From: a virus
Lineage: Duplodnaviria > Heunggongvirae > Uroviricota > Caudoviricetes
Virus record (IMG/VR): IMGVR_UViG_2734482778_000013
Coordinates: 1 to 35,527 of that record
Length of the DNA: 35,527 nt
Reading direction: 5' to 3' (one strand)
Of this stretch, positions 3,641-10,170 are shown piece after piece. Each line of letters begins with the position of its first letter. The first letter of the stretch is position 1. Both the position numbers and the translations under genes were made by a program. The notes below the pieces were generated by a model, which had not been told where the DNA came from, did not search any database, and worked only from the letters and a program-made list of their open reading frames with translations.

Positions 3641-3883
3641 ATGGGCAAAGAATATAAAACTCTCATTAACAAAGCACTTGAGCGTTTTTATTTTCGCTTA
3701 AGTGCATCAGGCGCTCATGCTGAACGTGCAGCCCGTGACTCATTGACCAGAGCAATCCGGAGTCTGTATGACGTTGCTTTTTACGCTGATGATCTGGATG
3801 CACTTAACGAACTTTCCGAGCTGATCTGTGCCGCAGAATGCGGGGAACACATTGAACCGTATAAGCTGGGGAATATCGCATGA
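3641..3883 (+). CDS. Hypothetical protein
   Basis: 80-aa ORF, tight spacing in operon. Confidence 0.45.
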   Translation: MGKEYKTLINKALERFYFRLSASGAHAERAARDSLTRAIRSLYDVAFYADDLDALNELSELICAAECGEHIEPYKLGNIA

Positions 3884-3993
3884 GTATATTTATTTCGTGG
3901 CTCATTCTGATTATTTCGGTGATCTGCGCTATTGGCATTATGCGAATTATTCATTCAGTGAAAAAGATTGAGCGTTTTTTCTCTGACGAATAA
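3880..3993 (+). CDS. Candidate small hydrophobic membrane peptide (37 aa)
   Basis: ATGA start/stop overlap with upstream ORF; translation MSIFISWLILIISVICAIGIMRIIHSVKKIERFFSDE has one predicted TM helix; below ORF-track length cutoff. Confidence 0.3.
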   Translation: MSIFISWLILIISVICAIGIMRIIHSVKKIERFFSDE

Positions 3994-4086
3994 CAGCACA
4001 AATAAAACACCAGATTAAATAAGAAAACGTGAAAACCATCCGCATTAGCGGAGGTATTCGCACACGTAAATAACGGAGATACAAAA

Positions 4087-4497
4087 ATGAACGCAAAAGA
4101 AAAAGGCATTGTAACTGCGCTAAAAAATATATCGGAGGCCGCAAACAGAGCCATTCAGGATGCAACAAATGCAGGAATGATTGGGCCTGCCACCACAGCC
4201 ATGATGATAGCAAGAGTAACCGCCGAAGCAGCCGAAATTATCGCAAAACAGGATGCTGAACTAGCGGTTCTCAGAACACAACCAGTCACCGGACTGGATT
4301 TGTCTAACACCGGACGCCTTATTTACACAATTGGCTCGGAACCACAGCAATACACCATTATCGTCGGATTACAGGATAAATACCTGATCACTCCTCACCC
4401 CATAAGGGAATCAGAAATTCTGACAAATCTCCGCCTGATAGAGCGTTCTCACGTCGCATTCATTGATGAAGCACAGCGCACCGTATTTAACGCATAG
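4087..4497 (+). CDS. Hypothetical protein
   Basis: 136-aa ORF with GGAG RBS upstream. Confidence 0.5.
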   Translation: MNAKEKGIVTALKNISEAANRAIQDATNAGMIGPATTAMMIARVTAEAAEIIAKQDAELAVLRTQPVTGLDLSNTGRLIYTIGSEPQQYTIIVGLQDKYLITPHPIRESEILTNLRLIERSHVAFIDEAQRTVFNA

Positions 4498-4520
4498 GGT
4501 TACTGGACAAAGGGGGCGCA

Positions 4521-4724
4521 ATGGCAATTAAGCGATTTACCGTCGTTCGTTTCACTTCCAGAGGACGTGAATACGAAGTTGACGAACGGCTGATTAAAAC
4601 GCTCGACCGTCACCGTTTGCAACCTGACGCGCATCACATTTATCTCACTGACGACACTTACTTCTGCGCCACCAACGTGGTGCAGGTGAACCTTATCCGA
4701 CAGGTACAGGAGTCACGCAGATGA
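4521..4724 (+). CDS. Hypothetical protein
   Basis: 67-aa ORF, GGGGG RBS, ATGA overlap with next gene. Confidence 0.45.
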   Translation: MAIKRFTVVRFTSRGREYEVDERLIKTLDRHRLQPDAHHIYLTDDTYFCATNVVQVNLIRQVQESRR

Positions 4725-4966
4725 CCATTCTGGACTACATCGCCGCCAATCCGGGTTGTAGCGGTGGAGAAATCGCCGCCGCGCTGAATACCCCAACCAC
4801 AGCCATTAATGCGGAGTTACGCCGACTCTGGCGCAGCGGTTCAGTCATAAGAAAAGAGCGCAAAACAGGCGGTCGCTTTCCTTACCAGATAAACCCGATG
4901 CCGTTCGGGTGCGGCAATCCACTTACCAACATGTTTAACCAACTACTGAAGGAAGCCAGAGCATGA
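4721..4966 (+). CDS. Putative winged-helix DNA-binding protein
   Basis: 81 aa; segment GGEIAAALNTPTTAINAELRRLWRSGSV resembles a wHTH recognition helix/wing; translationally coupled on both sides. Confidence 0.4.
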   Translation: MTILDYIAANPGCSGGEIAAALNTPTTAINAELRRLWRSGSVIRKERKTGGRFPYQINPMPFGCGNPLTNMFNQLLKEARA

Positions 4967-5262
4967 GCACCATCAACCACCAGGAACTACGCGAACTGGC
5001 GACTGACCTGCAACGAATGGCAACGCATCAAAAATTACTGGCGTTTCGCGCAATGCTCTCGCCGTCTGCCGTACTGGCGCTACTGGATGAACTGGAGCAC
5101 GCCAGAACCATGGCTCCTGCCATTCGTCTGACGCTCCATCATGAAATCAAGGATTTTTGCGCGACGCTGGAGTCACCAGGTGAATCAGAAACGCCGGAAG
5201 CAATGCAGCAGGAGCTGCTGCAACGCATCGACAACGTTTTCGATTTTTTCCTTAACCAGTAA
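4963..5262 (+). CDS. Hypothetical protein
   Basis: 99-aa ORF, ATGA overlap with upstream gene. Confidence 0.45.
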   Translation: MSTINHQELRELATDLQRMATHQKLLAFRAMLSPSAVLALLDELEHARTMAPAIRLTLHHEIKDFCATLESPGESETPEAMQQELLQRIDNVFDFFLNQ

Positions 5263-5273
5263 AGGACCGCGAT

Positions 5274-5477
5274 ATGAACAAAAAGACCTGGTTTCGCGCA
5301 TACATGTGGGCGCTGGTATGCGTCCTCGTCTCTCTCATTCTGTATGCAGGACTACTCCCCCGAATGATTTCATCAGACAGCTCCTTCCTGGTATTGCTAG
5401 GCATTTTCATTGCCATGCTGTACCCGGCAGGCGTTGTTCGCCTTTTCAGTAAGTACATCGAGGAAATCAAACAATGA
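5274..5477 (+). CDS. Small two-TM membrane protein, partner of SPFH lipoprotein
   Basis: 67 aa with two hydrophobic helices (WALVCVLVSLILYAGLL; FLVLLGIFIAMLYPAGVV); stop overlaps start of downstream gene (ATGA). Confidence 0.55.
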   Translation: MNKKTWFRAYMWALVCVLVSLILYAGLLPRMISSDSSFLVLLGIFIAMLYPAGVVRLFSKYIEEIKQ

Positions 5478-6304
5478 AGAAATTCAAACTCTTTCAGATT
5501 CTCCCGCTTTTTGCCGCCATCCTGCTGGTTGGCTGCGATCGCGTTGAGCCTGGTAATGTGGGCATCAAAGTCAACAAGCTGGGCGACGACAAAGGCGTTG
5601 GCGAAGTGGTTGGCGTTGGCCGCTACTGGACTGGCTGGAATACAGAGGTTTACATCTTCCCGACCTTCAAACAAATGAAGACCTACGATGAGCCGTTCAG
5701 CTTCCAGATGAGTGACGGCACAACCATCGGCTATCACATCGGCGTGGCTTACAAGGTTGATCCATCCAAAGTTACCACAGTGTTTCAGACCTACCGCAAA
5801 GGCGTGGATGACATTACCGACACTGACCTGCGCCAGAAGATCGCCGATGCACTCAACCGACTGGCCAGCAAAATGACCACCGATAAGTTTATCGACGGTG
5901 GTAAGTCTGAACTGCTGGATTCAGCACTTAAAGATATTCAGGAAGAGATGACCCCCATCGGCATTCAGGTCATGAGCCTCTCTTATGTCGGTAAACCGGA
6001 ATATCCGCCAACCGTTATCGACAGCATTAACGCCAAAGTCACGGCAAACCAGAAAACCCTGCAACGCGAACAGGAAGTCAAGCAACGCGAAGCAGAAGCC
6101 AACATGCTGCGCGCAGAAGCTGCCGGACAGGCTGATGCCATTCGCACGAAAGCCCAAGCCGAAGCCGATGCCATTCGTTTACGCGGTGAAGCACTGCGCC
6201 AGAACCCCGGTGTTATGGAGCTGGAAGCAATTAACAAATGGAACGGCACGCTGCCGCAATACATGACCAGTAATACCGCTGTTCCGTTTGTTCCGGTGAA
6301 GTAA
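5474..6304 (+). CDS. SPFH/band-7 (prohibitin/HflK-C-like) domain lipoprotein
   Basis: N-terminal signal peptide with lipobox LLVGC; central band-7-like region and C-terminal Ala/Glu/Gln/Arg-rich coiled-coil segment typical of HflK/HflC-type proteins. Confidence 0.7.
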   Translation: MKKFKLFQILPLFAAILLVGCDRVEPGNVGIKVNKLGDDKGVGEVVGVGRYWTGWNTEVYIFPTFKQMKTYDEPFSFQMSDGTTIGYHIGVAYKVDPSKVTTVFQTYRKGVDDITDTDLRQKIADALNRLASKMTTDKFIDGGKSELLDSALKDIQEEMTPIGIQVMSLSYVGKPEYPPTVIDSINAKVTANQKTLQREQEVKQREAEANMLRAEAAGQADAIRTKAQAEADAIRLRGEALRQNPGVMELEAINKWNGTLPQYMTSNTAVPFVPVK

Positions 6305-6310
6305 TTAAAC

Positions 6311-6355
6311 CCGGCCAGTGAAAATCGCTGGCCGGAGCAGTATCAGGATTTTTTT
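6311..6355 (+). terminator. Rho-independent terminator after SPFH gene
   Basis: Hairpin CCGGCCAG-(9 nt)-CTGGCCGG followed by a T-run (GATTTTTTTAG). Confidence 0.6.
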
Positions 6356-6672
6356 AGTATGCCGTTCTCACAAAAAAACCGCTTGCCATGCCGCAATCAG
6401 TCAGGTTACATTTCCGCTGCACCTCATAAAACGGGTGCCGGGATTGGAACCCCGCACACTAACAGAGCGCACAACCGCGCCAGCGGTTTTTTTGTGCGTA
6501 CCGTATCGCCACGTCTTTTTCGCGTCAGAATTATGGTGGGGCGTACAGGGCCAGCATCAGCTGGGCCGGGTCCTCTGTTAGCCGGTAGTTCCAACCCTGT
6601 ACGTCTCACCACCCCGAGCTTGGAACCTCTGGATGGTGAGTTTTCAAAACTGACTAACAGAGAGGCCACACC

Positions 6673-6903
6673 ATGGCAAACCGCAAACAGCACCGCGCTA
6701 TCGCGGAGCGTCGTCACATCCAGACTGAAATCAACCGCAGACTTTTCCGCGCATTCCGCGTCGCGCAGATCATGCACATCAATATGCTGCATGAGCGCAG
6801 CCACGCGCTATCGAACAGCTATTCCGCCTCTGTTTTCAGCTATCTGGCGGATGATCTGCGCGAGCTTCAGCGGCTCATCCAGCAGCAAAACAAACTCCAT
6901 TAA
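6673..6903 (+). CDS. Hypothetical small basic protein
   Basis: 76-aa ORF with AGAGG RBS 7 nt upstream of ATG. Confidence 0.4.
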   Translation: MANRKQHRAIAERRHIQTEINRRLFRAFRVAQIMHINMLHERSHALSNSYSASVFSYLADDLRELQRLIQQQNKLH

Positions 6904-7347: not shown

Positions 7348-10170
7348 ATGACGGCAGAGTACATCAGGGACTGGCAACAACCGCGCCACGCAGTGGGGCG
7401 TGAAGGAACGGGGATCCCCGCTCCTGAATCCGCGCTTTCCTCCTGGCTGGATGCCTACCGGGTAGAGAACGAGCGCCGCCAGGAAATGGCTGATGCGGCG
7501 TTCTCCGCCACGCCGCTGGGCAACCTGATTAATAAAAGCCTGGACGCACAGGAAAAACAGGACAAAACCATCACACTGGCAGGAGACGCCAGAAAACAGG
7601 CACGCGGCGCGGTGGATGAAGCCATGGCCTCGCTGCGCCTGCTGCCGTCCTATCTGCGCGATCCGCTTATTCGCCACCTCTCCTTCCTGCGCAAAAAACA
7701 GGAAGCCGATCGCCGGAAAGGCAAAAAGAGCTGGCAGGCAGAACGCTATGCACGCGGAACCCTGCGCAAGATATTCGATCGCATTAACCGTGCCGACAGT
7801 CGCTGGCTGACACCGGGTTATCGCTCCCTCGCCGGACGTGAACGCCTGGATGATTTGCTTTACCTGCCGCAGCTCAACAAACACCAGATACAGACGCTGG
7901 CCACCATGACGGCGGCGATGTTCAGCAGCACCTTCGAAAAACTCTGCGATGGCTTTGGCGCGACCGATGGCGAGCTGACCATGGATGTAACCCTGAAGGC
8001 GTATCAGATGCTGGCCCGCATGGCGTTACACCTGCACGCCATGCCTCCACATTATGACGCACTGACAACAGACAAAGACCGGAGGAACGAACCGGACACG
8101 GAGCTGCTGCCGGGCGCAATCCTTCGCCTGACCTGTGCGGAATGGTGGAAACGCAAACTGTGGCTGTTACGTTGCGAGTGGAGAGAAGAACAACTCCGCG
8201 CCGCCTGTCTGGTTTCCAGAAAAACATCACCCTATCTGAGCCAGGACGCGTTAAGCGAGTTTCGCGCACAGCGCGAGAAAACACGCGATTTCCTGAAAAG
8301 TTTCATGCTGGAAAATGAAGACGGGTTCACGATTGATCTCGAGACGGTGTATTACGCGGGAGTAAGTAACCCGGTTCACCGTAAGGCAGAAATGATGGCC
8401 ACCATGAAGGGGCTGGAACTTCTGGTCGAAGCCCGTGGCGACAAAGCGGTGTTTCTGACTGTCACCTGCCCGTCAAAATACCACGCCACAACGGAGAACG
8501 GTCATCCGAATCCCAAATGGAACGGGGCCACAATGCGCGACTCCAGCGATTACCTGGTTAACACGTTTTTTGCGGCGGTCCGCAAGAAACTGAATCGCGA
8601 CGGCCTGCGCTGGTATGGCATCCGCACGGTGGAGCCTCACCATGACGGCACAGTGCACTGGCATATGATGGTCTTTGCACATCCGGAAGAAATCGACAGC
8701 ATCGTGGCCATCACCCGCGATATTGCCATTCAGGAAGACCGCCACGAGCTGGGCAATGATATTACTCCGCGCTTTAAGGTGGAGTATGTCGACGGCTCAA
8801 AAGGCACACCGACCAGCTATATCGCCACCTACATCGGAAAAAACCTGGACAGCCGCGCCGTGGATGGCATCGACCCGAAAACGGGCAAGCCACGCGTTGA
8901 CCACGAAACCGGAAAATCAATGGCCGAGAGCGTGGAGCGCGCCATCGGCTGGGCGCGCCTTCACCGCGTCCGCCAGTTCCAGTTCTTTGGCATCCCCTCC
9001 CGTCAGGTGTGGCGTGAACTGCGCCGCCTCGCCAGCCAGATGGCACGCAACCCGGAAGGCCCGCAACGGCTGAAGGATGACGCAATGGATGCGGTTCTTG
9101 CTGCCGCTGATGCCGGGTGTTTTGCCTCCTACATTGAAAAACAGGGTGGCGTACTTGTTCCACGCAAGGACTACCTGATTCGCACCGCCTACGACCTCGC
9201 AGATGAGCTGAACGATTACGGCGAGCAGGGCGTACAGATTTACGGGATCTGGTCACCACTCATCGGGGAATCCTCCCGTGTGTGCACGCATCCGGATAAC
9301 TGGAAGCTGGTAAGACGCAAACCGGAAGCGGAAGACAGCGCCCGCGAAAATGGTTTTGACCTTCAGGGCGGCCCTGCCGCCCCTTGGACTCGTGGCAATA
9401 ACTGTCCCCGTGTACAGGAAACAGGCAACAACGGGACAGAACAGCCGGAAGAACGGCCAGCACCGTGGCCGCAGATTCCTGACGGCGTTGAAGTGAATGA
9501 ATGGATGCGCTCACTGAAACGGCACGAACGCCGGGCGCTGATGCGTTCGCTTCGTGACAAACAGGCAAAAAACAGCAGTGATGAAATGCAAAGCTGGACA
9601 CAGAGCCGCAAACAGCAGCGGCCTTTGCCTGATAACCACGAATTACTCGCTAAAGAATGGCGGGAGTCTGCTGAATCTCTCGGCCTGCATATTGGTGAAC
9701 AGCAGATGCAGCACCTGTTACGGGGCGGCAGTCTGTACGTTGACGGCAGCATCATTGCACCGCAGGGATTTGAAATTGTACGCAAACCGGATACCCGCCC
9801 GGACAGCCGAATCACGCAGCTCTGGCAGCGCCTGAGCCGTAATCACGGCGTAAGCAGCACGGAGATCCGCCATAACCCGGCCGCCAGCTATCTGGAACAG
9901 CTGGGGGCATCAGACCCCGAAGCCGCCGCACGTCTGGCATCCACACTTCAGCAGGACCAGAACACCATGAAAACCCCCGTTACCGTGCTTTCTGACATGC
10001 TGCGCGCCATCCGCGACGCAGAGCATGCACAGAGAATCAGTGAAACCACTGAACGCGCCCGCCGCAAAGCAGACCTGCTGCGGGGTGGCCTGACAAGTGG
10101 AAACAAAAAACAGACAGAAACGGGATTCACAAATCCCGTAAATGAGCAAAAAACGCGCCGCGATATATGA
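7348..10170 (+). CDS. A: Rolling-circle replication initiator endonuclease (P2 gpA family), with long C-terminal extension
   Basis: HUH motif VHWHMMVFAHPEE and paired catalytic tyrosines YIATYIGKN; 940 aa (longer than P2 gpA); position after early operon. Confidence 0.85.
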   Translation: MTAEYIRDWQQPRHAVGREGTGIPAPESALSSWLDAYRVENERRQEMADAAFSATPLGNLINKSLDAQEKQDKTITLAGDARKQARGAVDEAMASLRLLPSYLRDPLIRHLSFLRKKQEADRRKGKKSWQAERYARGTLRKIFDRINRADSRWLTPGYRSLAGRERLDDLLYLPQLNKHQIQTLATMTAAMFSSTFEKLCDGFGATDGELTMDVTLKAYQMLARMALHLHAMPPHYDALTTDKDRRNEPDTELLPGAILRLTCAEWWKRKLWLLRCEWREEQLRAACLVSRKTSPYLSQDALSEFRAQREKTRDFLKSFMLENEDGFTIDLETVYYAGVSNPVHRKAEMMATMKGLELLVEARGDKAVFLTVTCPSKYHATTENGHPNPKWNGATMRDSSDYLVNTFFAAVRKKLNRDGLRWYGIRTVEPHHDGTVHWHMMVFAHPEEIDSIVAITRDIAIQEDRHELGNDITPRFKVEYVDGSKGTPTSYIATYIGKNLDSRAVDGIDPKTGKPRVDHETGKSMAESVERAIGWARLHRVRQFQFFGIPSRQVWRELRRLASQMARNPEGPQRLKDDAMDAVLAAADAGCFASYIEKQGGVLVPRKDYLIRTAYDLADELNDYGEQGVQIYGIWSPLIGESSRVCTHPDNWKLVRRKPEAEDSARENGFDLQGGPAAPWTRGNNCPRVQETGNNGTEQPEERPAPWPQIPDGVEVNEWMRSLKRHERRALMRSLRDKQAKNSSDEMQSWTQSRKQQRPLPDNHELLAKEWRESAESLGLHIGEQQMQHLLRGGSLYVDGSIIAPQGFEIVRKPDTRPDSRITQLWQRLSRNHGVSSTEIRHNPAASYLEQLGASDPEAAARLASTLQQDQNTMKTPVTVLSDMLRAIRDAEHAQRISETTERARRKADLLRGGLTSGNKKQTETGFTNPVNEQKTRRDI

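Follow-up and report, generated by a model that had tools for sequence, protein, structure and literature searches.

Two overlapping genes in a phage early operon

The DNA analysed here (the window) is a stretch of 35,527 nucleotides from a P88-like phage of the P2 type. Two overlapping genes on its plus strand lie between cox and gene A in an early operon led by Cox, which confirms the phage origin and early-operon position put forward in the initial annotation. The stop codon of an ead/Ea22-like ORF (4963-5262) directly precedes a Shine-Dalgarno sequence, AAGGA (5262-5266), that can be read 7 nt upstream of the ATG of a small ORF at 5274-5477; this encodes a 67-amino-acid protein with two hydrophobic segments. 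A second Shine-Dalgarno sequence, GAGGA (5460-5464), is embedded in the end of the small ORF and serves the gene for a 276-amino-acid SPFH protein (5474-6304). The two reading frames share 4 nt, ATGA, at 5474-5477 (junction caATGAag), a signature of translational coupling. Both ORFs have the coordinates and lengths originally given for them.

A consensus scan, which is a crude search, found no promoter-like site from position 3694 to 6383, and it detected no promoter belonging to the cassette in the window, in RCS47 or upstream of the partner ORF in an Stx2 phage; the single plus-strand promoter-like site at the Stx2 locus falls within the partner ORF. Because the scan is so crude, it may have missed a weak internal promoter that works in lysogens. 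Base composition was considered as a sign of recent import and gave no anomaly, the GC fraction being 0.48-0.52 compared with 0.52 for the whole window.

Seven nucleotides past the stop codon of the SPFH gene there is an 11-bp GC-rich hairpin on the plus strand (6311-6335; stem 6311-6321/6325-6335; about -20 kcal/mol; z=-3.0) that had been described as a dedicated terminator. The hairpin itself stands, but its designation as a terminator does not: there is no adjacent U-tract, a U-run at 6349-6355 beginning 13 nt past the stem, and the structure is missing from the list returned by a consensus terminator scan. The cassette also occurs elsewhere without it, with nucleotide similarity to the Stx and P1-like copies stopping at or before the stop codon at 6304. 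The hairpin is specific to the P88-like context and is not a canonical intrinsic terminator.

The SPFH protein and its two-helix partner

The 276-amino-acid protein has one N-terminal hydrophobic segment that closes in the lipobox L-V-G-C, followed by DRVEPG. Its signal peptide (5474-5536), MKKFK-LFQILPLFAAILLVG-C21, combines a basic n-region, a hydrophobic core and the lipobox, as judged by hydropathy and by a match to the pattern [LVI][ASTVI][GAS]C near the N-terminus, in agreement with the lipobox reported earlier. The lipobox Cys never varies in a 60-sequence alignment (A3) and is shared by at least 90% of the sequences in a 51-sequence alignment (A4); an uncleaved N-terminal transmembrane (TM) anchor replaces the lipobox in some relatives. 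Cys21 is followed by Asp22, and Asp occupies this +2 position in 103 of 108 lipobox-bearing close homologues (95%). Asp at +2 is the Lol-avoidance signal that causes retention in the inner membrane in Enterobacterales, and by this sorting rule the SPFH protein is predicted to reside at the inner membrane and to face the periplasm. The residue after the Cys is Tyr in the copy of Erwinia phage S6 and Glu or Gly in a second enterobacterial subgroup, so the predicted inner-membrane retention may not extend to the family as a whole.

Those members without Asp at +2 would be in keeping with an outer-membrane or secreted lipoprotein that masks receptors, as do Llp and Cor, or that acts as a virulence or immunomodulatory factor. 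A prophage protein of P. multocida described as HflK/C-like, and akin to the present family by that description only, is reported to occur in outer-membrane vesicles, to signal through TLR1/2 and to affect virulence (PMC9872710). Such a location is nonetheless very improbable for the protein described here, given the prevalence of Asp at +2 in its close homologues and its obligatory inner-membrane partner. The TM-anchored relatives, and others that are fused to integral-membrane helices, are themselves fixed in the cytoplasmic membrane, which speaks for the same location here. A role in virulence is further weakened because the module is also carried in phages of environmental bacteria (Ruegeria, Caulobacter and crAss-like phages), where host virulence is irrelevant.

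The presence of an SPFH domain, proposed in the initial annotation, was borne out by a profile search: Pfam Band_7 (PF01145) matched residues 23-209 (5540-6100) with 108.4 bits against a cutoff of 23.6 (E=5.7e-31), beginning two residues past the Cys that is the predicted site of lipidation. The protein also matched the PHROG 200 'lipoprotein' family (E=1.8e-112). In an AlphaFold2 model with a mean pLDDT of 80, an alpha/beta domain at residues 21-176 (pLDDT mostly 80-95) leads into a single helix of 65 residues (179-243; 6008-6202), the element that forms the coiled-coil wall of SPFH cages; the long coiled-coil-type tail that had been suggested is thus present in the model. The helix region shows a weak sequence match to residues 180-306 of HflK. 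Beyond it, the C-terminal region (6203-6304, including the stop codon) carries the family-wide motif K-W-N/D-G-x-L-P, with no variation at W256, G258 or P261 in A4 and none at W256 in A3; model confidence is low over the C-terminal 30 residues. In Foldseek the model aligned over its full length, at a probability of 1.00, with HflC/K, prohibitin, erlin, stomatin, flotillin and QmcA; all solved SPFH proteins that form cages were matched in this way, and the alignments to them span 260-305 columns.

In GenBank, members of the family in Stx2 phages, phiP27 and phages of Ruegeria, Erwinia, Hafnia, Burkholderia and Pseudomonas have been labelled as serine proteases, transposases or transposase fusions. 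We give these labels almost no chance of being correct: Band_7 is the only domain found in the protein, no protease or transposase family matched it at E<=0.1, and the signal peptide, SPFH domain and helix account for its whole length in the model. The 'serine protease' label probably derives from proteins of the NfeD/ClpP class that are encoded next to other SPFH genes.

Orthology to HflK or HflC was considered and rejected, the protein scoring more than 100 bits under the family cutoffs. It reached 25.7 and 23.5 bits with the NCBIfam HflC and HflK models, whose cutoffs are 134 and 159, and 18.8-25.7 bits across TIGR01933, TIGR01932, PRK10930 and PRK11029 (cutoffs 134-660). The earlier description of the protein as HflK/C-like consequently fails in its specific sense, since the fold is about as near to prohibitin, erlin, stomatin and flotillin, at 14-18% identity.

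The partner matched the PHROG 1130 'membrane protein' family (E=2.2e-22) and has hydrophobic segments at about residues 9-30 and 36-58, in accord with the small two-helix membrane protein that had been recognised as coupled to the SPFH gene. Positive charges at both of its ends predict a hairpin with the N- and C-termini in the cytoplasm. The loop that would then be periplasmic bears the motif P29-x-M-I-S33-x-x-S/D, with P-x-L/M-I/V-S as the conserved form. Among 28 partners, free or fused, that were aligned, Ser33 never varies and Pro29 is kept in at least 90%. A likeness to NfeD-SPFH operon pairs had been suggested for this arrangement and did not hold. NfeD (PF01957) was not matched by the window's partner at E<=1, and at that threshold it is absent from the 25 most frequent Pfam matches of the set of 28 partners, for which no other Pfam family emerged as a recurrent match either; a partner profile found no relative among PDB chains, YbbJ of 8z5g included. 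With only 67 amino acids and no soluble domain, the partner has no room for the NfeD OB-fold, and its candidacy as an NfeD protein was rejected.

The two proteins have evolved differently. Purifying selection on the SPFH protein in its mature form is extreme (dN/dS 0.008-0.07): the protein is 98% identical to the P1-like copy at a dS of about 1.0 (dN/dS 0.008), and the ratio is 0.06-0.07 in four of five other pairs, dS being saturated in the fifth, with Klebsiella phage Pylas, for which no ratio was obtained. It is among the most strongly constrained phage accessory proteins that one is likely to meet. The partner, with a dN of 0.4-1.1, evolves fast save for the one periplasmic loop motif. Purifying selection of this kind fits the assembly of a cage but is not specific to it.

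Conservation of the pair in temperate and virulent phages

A homologue of the SPFH protein is encoded by 412 phage records and by more than 521 IMG/VR contigs. Among 5426 complete E. coli genomes, 716 (13%) have the gene. Stx2-converting phages and P1-like phage-plasmids are among its carriers. Both temperate and strictly lytic phages have the pair. Of the 80 best related loci in IMG/VR, 79 have it; the genes overlap by 4 nt in 52 of these loci, by 20 nt in 25 and by 1 nt in two. This conservation, together with the ATGA overlap and the embedded GAGGA, upholds the translational coupling originally proposed. A search for related loci that started from alignment A4 reached only relatives of at least 92% identity; more distant contexts were taken from contigs that encode homologues, and each of those examined has the pair. 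Overlapping pairs occur in Stx2, P1-like, N4-like (Erwinia S6, Klebsiella Pylas), SSU5-like and lambdoid phages with partners that are sometimes just 20-45% identical, and relatives of 41-51% identity show the arrangement in contexts of Salmonella, of Epibacterium and of Ruegeria phages and on a phage contig of 157 kb. In Kuttervirus PhiSH19 an annotated 'superinfection exclusion protein' was considered as the partner and rejected, being soluble, acidic and encoded about 200 nt upstream of the SPFH gene; the true neighbour is an overlapping, unannotated two-TM ORF of 72 amino acids without the loop motif. Single-ORF fusions, in which the two-TM domain is followed by a basic linker, the lipoprotein signal peptide and the SPFH domain, account for some 20 of the 150 highest-ranking representatives of the family and are also found among prophage proteins of Rhodopseudomonas. 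The recurrence of the pair is far beyond chance and the partner is obligatory for the SPFH protein.

The module always lies among early genes in the contexts examined, virulent phages included. It occupies a slot in the C1-controlled ban operon of P1-like phages, is part of the early-left operons of lambdoid prophages and is found among the early or middle genes of N4-like phages. The early-left operon of lambda also contains cIII, and the position of the module in lambdoid prophages is among the observations that would suit a phage-encoded surrogate for HflK/C, in which the phage cage would bind or displace FtsH-HflKC, shift the stability of CII/CIII-type regulators and so bear on the choice between lysis and lysogeny. 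HflK (E=1.2e-4) and prohibitin-2, both of them partners of FtsH-type proteases, are the best sequence matches among solved structures, and the predicted topology, periplasmic at the inner membrane, equals that of HflK/C. This idea, which led the functional proposals of the initial annotation, is already in print (PMC4936722; PMC8540360), as is the objection to it from virulent carriers (PMC8540360). We regard the surrogate as quite improbable. The module is carried by N4-like and other virulent phages and by Pseudomonas phages described as obligately lytic, and a lysogeny-specific role is weakened because it sits among the early genes of virulent phages too. It is also found in P2-type and P1-type phages, and we know of no dependence of their switches on CII or FtsH. 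In addition, the protein scores far below the HflK and HflC cutoffs, its structure is no nearer to HflK/C than to erlin or prohibitin, and there is one SPFH gene and no K/C pair.

The same contexts bear on the possibility that the pair is a defence moron, expressed from the repressed prophage and shielding the lysogen by superinfection exclusion or abortive infection, two functions that the initial annotation also put forward. The usual agents of exclusion are small inner-membrane proteins and lipoproteins, such as T4 Imm and Sp, T5 Llp and P22 SieA. The module has the character of an accessory cassette in swap-prone slots: at the same position reference P1 has tciABC, and Xuanwuvirus Shae_phiSM encodes a DNA-binding protein there. 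Its abundance in E. coli genomes would also be compatible with such a function. Expression as a defence in the lysogen is nevertheless improbable, if marginally less so than the surrogate, because the module sits in repressor-controlled early operons with no promoter of its own detected and because the SPFH protein has no match among the PADLOC-DB 2.0 defence models; the partner gave one marginal, chance-level match of 14 bits, to the candidate system PDC-M18B. The many virulent carriers have no lysogen to protect, which weakens the proposal further, and the near-identity of the proteins across phages with unrelated receptors and tails is unlike that of receptor-specific exclusion proteins. 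Exclusion during lytic growth is a different matter; it is possible and is part of the best explanation given below.

A proposed membrane scaffold and its relation to known systems

We lean towards reading the two genes as a single split, membrane-anchored, HflK/C-like SPFH scaffold that operates on the periplasmic face of the inner membrane early in the lytic programme. In this scheme the 276-amino-acid protein would be exported, lipid-modified at Cys21 and kept in the inner membrane through Asp at +2, so that its SPFH domain would lie flat on the periplasmic face. A ring or dome may arise from its long helices, which would form both wall and cap as they do in HflK/C, prohibitin, erlin and stomatin. 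The 67-amino-acid hairpin, supplied in a 1:1 ratio through translational coupling, would be located in the bilayer under the rim of this oligomeric cage and would provide the TM 'pickets' that other SPFH proteins bear at their own N-terminus, with the conserved periplasmic loop as the likely point of contact. It is homology and the sorting rules that suggest the cage, the contact between partners and the retention in the inner membrane. The module would be transcribed with early lytic genes and so would act in the infected or induced cell and not in the quiescent lysogen.

The role that we favour for the scaffold is a generic service to lytic growth, either the confinement of a conserved inner-membrane client or the protection of the membrane and the proton-motive force until programmed lysis. 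Protection of the membrane, or exclusion of further incoming phage DNA, is a tentative proposal, the capture of FtsH or of another inner-membrane client is a little more doubtful, and what remains of our expectation belongs to other roles. A bolder scheme is less likely still: the module may be a widespread device for host takeover, a lipid-anchored cage whose TM fence is supplied in trans or freed from a fusion by signal peptidase II, and which, from the periplasmic side, jails a conserved inner-membrane machine, FtsH being the obvious candidate, or shields the membrane to keep the holin clock from going off too soon. If true, this would be the first function for any viral SPFH protein and a new route by which phages control the membrane proteostasis of the host, and temperate and virulent phages alike would share the device, in Proteobacteria and possibly in Bacteroidota.

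In cells, SPFH proteins are known to act as membrane scaffolds; the viral family described here is common. The literature that we searched on the function of viral SPFH proteins offers annotations and speculation and no functional study. Our analysis defines for testing a two-protein unit with a predicted periplasmic compartment at the inner membrane and a place in the early lytic programme. It also removes a misreading from phage-therapy genomics, where the SPFH gene has been taken as a marker of a temperate lifestyle or as a serine protease or transposase.

The existing families of the pair, PHROG 200, PHROG 1130 and the NCBI 'SPFH domain-containing protein', carry no function, and none of the PHROG and NCBI annotations that we saw mentions the pairing, the fusions or the sorting signal. 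The exclusion proteins of T4 (Imm, Sp), T5 (the lipoprotein Llp) and P22 (SieA) are likewise early, accessory and either small inner-membrane proteins or lipoproteins. They differ from the phage pair in having no SPFH domain, and no similarity of sequence or fold to them was detected; they usually concern one receptor or injection route, whereas the phage SPFH protein is near-identical across unrelated phage types. The SPFH-NfeD pairs QmcA-YbbJ (8z5g), YqiK-YqiJ and PH1511-PH1510 of Pyrococcus resemble the module in the co-transcription of an SPFH gene with that of a small membrane protein, and QmcA is a structural match at rank 33 in Foldseek. The phage partner differs in having neither the NfeD OB-fold nor a match to the NfeD family in Pfam, and the phage SPFH protein is predicted to be exported whereas QmcA and YqiK face the cytoplasm.

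A precedent exists in the YdjG/YdjH-YdjI (SamG/H/I) system of B. subtilis, in which an SPFH protein and PspA are reported to be brought to the membrane by dedicated small membrane proteins in the handling of envelope stress (PMC8581546; bioRxiv 10.64898/2026.02.06.704340). That SPFH protein is cytosolic and chromosomally encoded, not phage-borne. The cage that HflK and HflC of E. coli build round FtsH (7vhp, 7vhq, 7wi3, 9cz2) shares with the phage protein an SPFH domain followed by a long helix; HflK is its top sequence match among solved structures, HflK/C are also its top Foldseek matches, and the periplasmic face of the inner membrane is the predicted site of the phage protein too. HflK/C is a heteropair with N-terminal TM anchors, whereas the phage encodes one SPFH protein, only 14-18% identical to them, which appears to be held by a lipid and is accompanied by a separate two-TM partner.

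Genomic setting of the gene pair

The gene pair proposed in the initial annotation is real, as read from the ORF listing and from the sequence directly. A 67-aa two-TM protein is encoded at 5274-5477 and a 276-aa SPFH lipoprotein at 5474-6304, both on the plus strand; the end of the first ORF and the start of the second share an ATGA tetranucleotide, and the GAGGA ribosome-binding site of the SPFH gene falls within the 3' end of the partner ORF. The partner has its own AAGGA before its ATG, immediately past the stop codon of the ORF upstream. The pair is also common, and annotations already name its products 'SPFH domain-containing protein' and 'membrane protein'.

This region of the window shares 97% identity with Escherichia phage P88 (Xuanwuvirus, Peduoviridae). 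The integrase (1-1008) and C-type repressor (1063-1404) genes are on the minus strand, and an uninterrupted series of plus-strand ORFs runs from Cox (1508-2035) to the gene A replication endonuclease (7348-10170). The module lies within this series and so belongs to the P2-type early operon, which bears out the early-operon position claimed for it. No sigma-70-like sites were found on the plus strand from 3694 to 6383. The 'dedicated terminator' said to follow the SPFH gene was not borne out: an 11-bp hairpin is present 3' of the stop codon (6311-6335, z=-3.0), but its U-run starts 13 nt further on and the consensus terminator scan did not list it as a terminator.

Directly 3' of the module, the stretch from 6383 to 6903 is a separate, RNA-based regulatory unit made up of a promoter-like site (6383-6412), the Hfq-binding sRNA IsrK (6419-6493, 72 bits) and its terminator (6473-6488 plus a T-run), a C4 antisense RNA (6529-6616, 78.5 bits) and the gene for a 76-aa 'Derepression' family protein (6673-6903). 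Its layout recalls the P1/P7 immI-type or Gifsy IsrK-type anti-repression circuits, here within a P2-type early region. In the RefSeq entry for P88, a minus-strand hypothetical CDS, probably spurious, is annotated over the RNA genes.

The SPFH lipoprotein and its two-TM partner

The SPFH domain and lipobox of the 276-aa protein were both confirmed: its one N-terminal hydrophobic segment terminates in the lipobox L-V-G-C21, followed by D-R-V-E-P-G, and residues 23-209 match Band_7/SPFH (Pfam PF01145, E=5.7e-31, 108 bits against a cutoff of 23.6). Family members are labelled in GenBank as 'serine protease', 'transposase', 'bacteriophage/transposase fusion protein', 'HflK family protein' or 'Stomatin-like integral membrane protein'; because Band_7 is the only domain detected, the first three are unsupported, and they are still spreading from record to record. 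An AlphaFold2 model built from a 51-sequence alignment (mean pLDDT 80.4) consists of an alpha/beta domain (21-176), an unbroken helix (179-243), a short helix (245-255) and a poorly defined tail. Foldseek aligned the whole model at probability 1.00 and 14-18% identity to HflC/HflK, prohibitin 1/2 and erlin 1/2, and also to stomatin, flotillin, QmcA and vault protein, while HflK (E=1.2e-4) and prohibitin-2 were the only solved relatives found by sequence. These matches indicate that the modelled protein is a bona fide cage-type SPFH protein, leaning slightly to the HflK/prohibitin branch. The description 'HflK/C-like' fails in any HflK/C-specific sense: orthology is ruled out by NCBIfam scores of 19-26 bits against cutoffs of 134-660, by a single SPFH gene where HflK and HflC form a pair, and by anchoring through lipid instead of a TM helix.

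Asp at position +2 after the lipobox Cys is a Lol-avoidance signal in Enterobacterales, and it is present in 103 of 108 lipobox-bearing close homologues. Family members that depart from it are Erwinia phage S6, with Tyr, and a second enterobacterial subgroup, with Glu or Gly. Some relatives, at Ruegeria phage V10 (L096) and locus L097, have an uncleaved N-terminal TM anchor in place of the lipobox, and fused forms join the SPFH domain to integral-membrane helices. These three independent lines point to a predicted location on the periplasmic side of the cytoplasmic membrane, where the domain would have to rest on the membrane surface since its fold begins two residues past the Cys.

The 67-aa partner has two hydrophobic segments with basic residues at either end, which predicts that it forms an N-in/C-in hairpin whose periplasmic loop is nine residues long. 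When 28 partner sequences, some free and some fused, were aligned, Ser33 proved invariant and Pro29 near-invariant, and the periplasmic turn had the consensus P-x-L/M-I/V-S-x-x-S/D-T. The suggested resemblance to NfeD was not upheld: at E<=1 the Pfam families listed for these 28 sequences were other families of small membrane proteins, matched weakly and sporadically, with NfeD not among them, and the partner profile matched nothing in the PDB.

We compared the module with relatives at 87-92% nucleotide identity in the mature SPFH coding region (Stx2-converting phages, phiP27 and P1-like phages) and with protein-level relatives (lambdoid Fraca, SSU5-like Cyrano, and the virulent N4-like Erwinia S6 and Klebsiella Pylas). 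Each has a 61-78-aa two-TM ORF directly 5' of the SPFH gene that overlaps or abuts its start; the ORF is unannotated in the Stx2 phage, where it is too diverged for tblastn, and in the P1-like phage RCS47. Of the 80 best IMG/VR loci, 79 contain the partner; the overlap is 4 nt at 52 of them, 20 nt at 25 and 1 nt at 2. At 41-51% identity, a Salmonella prophage, an Epibacterium prophage, Ruegeria phage V10 and a 157-kb metagenomic phage contig retain both an abutting 63-77-aa ORF and the loop motif; L097 (48% identity) has an abutting 67-aa two-TM ORF with the motif missing.

Gene fusion is classic evidence for the joint function of two proteins. About 20 of the top 150 cluster representatives reach 330-390 aa through an in-frame fusion in which the two-TM domain is followed by a basic linker, then by an entire lipoprotein signal peptide and finally by the SPFH domain, and Rhodopseudomonas-type prophage proteins have the same structure. 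Examples are P0286, from a Rhodopseudomonas palustris prophage (L090, 6001-7065), the fused proteins P0287, P0293, P0297, P0298 and P0302, and some 19 representatives from metagenomes. The basic linker is cytoplasmic and the signal peptide contains a lipobox; signal peptidase II cleavage there, if it occurs, would release both partners from one precursor, an unusual polyprotein-like biogenesis for a bacterial or phage lipoprotein.

Other small membrane ORFs occur near phage SPFH genes. In Stx2a phage Stx2_EH2201 (L002, 2631-2738) an unannotated 35-aa single-TM ORF, MKNNRELSRVKLLLILATVLTITEIIILFIALSVS, lies just 5' of the partner ORF within the 370-nt 'gap' preceding the SPFH gene. Salmonella phage PhiSH19 (Kuttervirus) encodes an SPFH lipoprotein with lipobox LSGC, and the start of its gene shares 4 nt with an unannotated 72-aa two-TM ORF (L098, 2432-2650, minus strand). 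This ORF has no P-x-L-I-S loop motif, and its strongly basic inter-helix loop suggests the opposite topology. Phage SPFH lipoproteins may thus be paired with small membrane ORFs outside this family as well.

Distribution and constraint

An exhaustive profile-free search returned 2906 cluster representatives at a threshold of E<=1e-3, of which 221 passed E<=1e-30. By tblastn (E<=1e-8) the SPFH protein occurs in 412 phage records, among them, by first word of organism name, Pseudomonas (76), Erwinia (48), Klebsiella (45), Escherichia (40), Burkholderia (30) and Caulobacter (26), together with crAss-like and Lak phages. Megablast located the gene in 716 of 5426 complete E. coli genomes, with 418 places on chromosomes and 391 on plasmids.

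The mature SPFH protein is under extraordinary purifying selection: it is 98% identical to the P1-like copy although synonymous sites are close to saturated (dS about 1.0; dN/dS 0.008), and dN/dS is 0.06-0.07 in four of five other pairs, the Pylas pair giving no ratio because its dS was saturated. In the same comparisons partner dN is 0.4-1.1. Such a pattern fits an SPFH protein that makes many contacts with itself, a conserved one with the host, or both, and a membrane hairpin in which little matters except hydrophobicity and one loop. Nucleotide similarity between families covers the mature SPFH part only, from just 5' of the signal-peptide cleavage site; its left edge with the Stx2, phiP27 and P1-like copies is at 5531, and megablast could not align the partner ORF and signal peptide across phage families. 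The edge marks either a great difference in constraint or a recombination boundary where the mature protein begins.

The module's SPFH gene is an accessory gene. In reference P1 (L092, 5162-5858; NC_005856) tciABC stands in the C1-controlled ban operon where RCS47-type phages have the module (L003, 2730-3774), as alternative cargo of one slot flanked by upl and tRNA/ban genes. The TerB-like tciA-tciB-tciC genes are annotated as tellurite/colicin resistance or cell-division inhibition, and this alternative occupancy hints that both cargos fill a related membrane-stress or exclusion niche. In Xuanwuvirus Shae_phiSM an unrelated DNA-binding protein occupies the P88 slot. In the 147-kb Ruegeria phage vB_RpoS-V10, the early gene block that holds the module also holds an Acb1-family (anti-CBASS phosphodiesterase) gene (L096, 2079-2531), about 2.5 kb 5' of it.

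Proposed role and known SPFH systems

The module is found among early genes in every examined genome with readable context, and many carriers are virulent; this context suggests that it acts in lytic development and not in the lysogenic state. A link between phage HflK/C and lysogeny has been proposed (PMC4936722) and then questioned because obligately lytic phages encode the protein (PMC8540360), and we regard a specific lysis-lysogeny role as very unlikely. A defence function expressed in the lysogen is also improbable; the SPFH protein matched none of the PADLOC defence models.

We propose, as the most likely reading, that the module is a split version of a TM-anchored SPFH scaffold, in which the lipoprotein builds a periplasmic ring or dome and the two-TM hairpin, produced in equal amounts, forms a fence inside the membrane, its conserved loop contacting the SPFH domain. 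The analysis establishes the domain content, coupling, conservation, fusions and genomic context, while oligomerisation, sorting, the 1:1 complex and the timing are inferred. The enclosed membrane patch might, tentatively, protect the membrane or proton-motive force, or exclude further incoming DNA, during the latent period; a somewhat more doubtful use is the capture of FtsH or another conserved inner-membrane client, and some other function takes the remaining probability. The functional framing of the initial annotation was reasonable, though standard speculation.

SPFH genes are mentioned repeatedly in phage genomes, and we found no functional study of them in the literature searched; a 2026 paper on a Schitoviridae phage states that the reason for the gene 'remains unclear' (PMC13239085). 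A P. multocida prophage protein described as HflK/C-like has been reported as a vesicle-borne virulence factor (PMC9872710). Our findings add an obligatory two-TM partner with a defined loop motif, natural fusions, an inner-membrane sorting signal, extreme constraint on the mature SPFH protein and a uniform early-gene context in temperate and virulent phages alike. The module is a distinct, phage-specific variant of a known scaffold type and merits an experiment.
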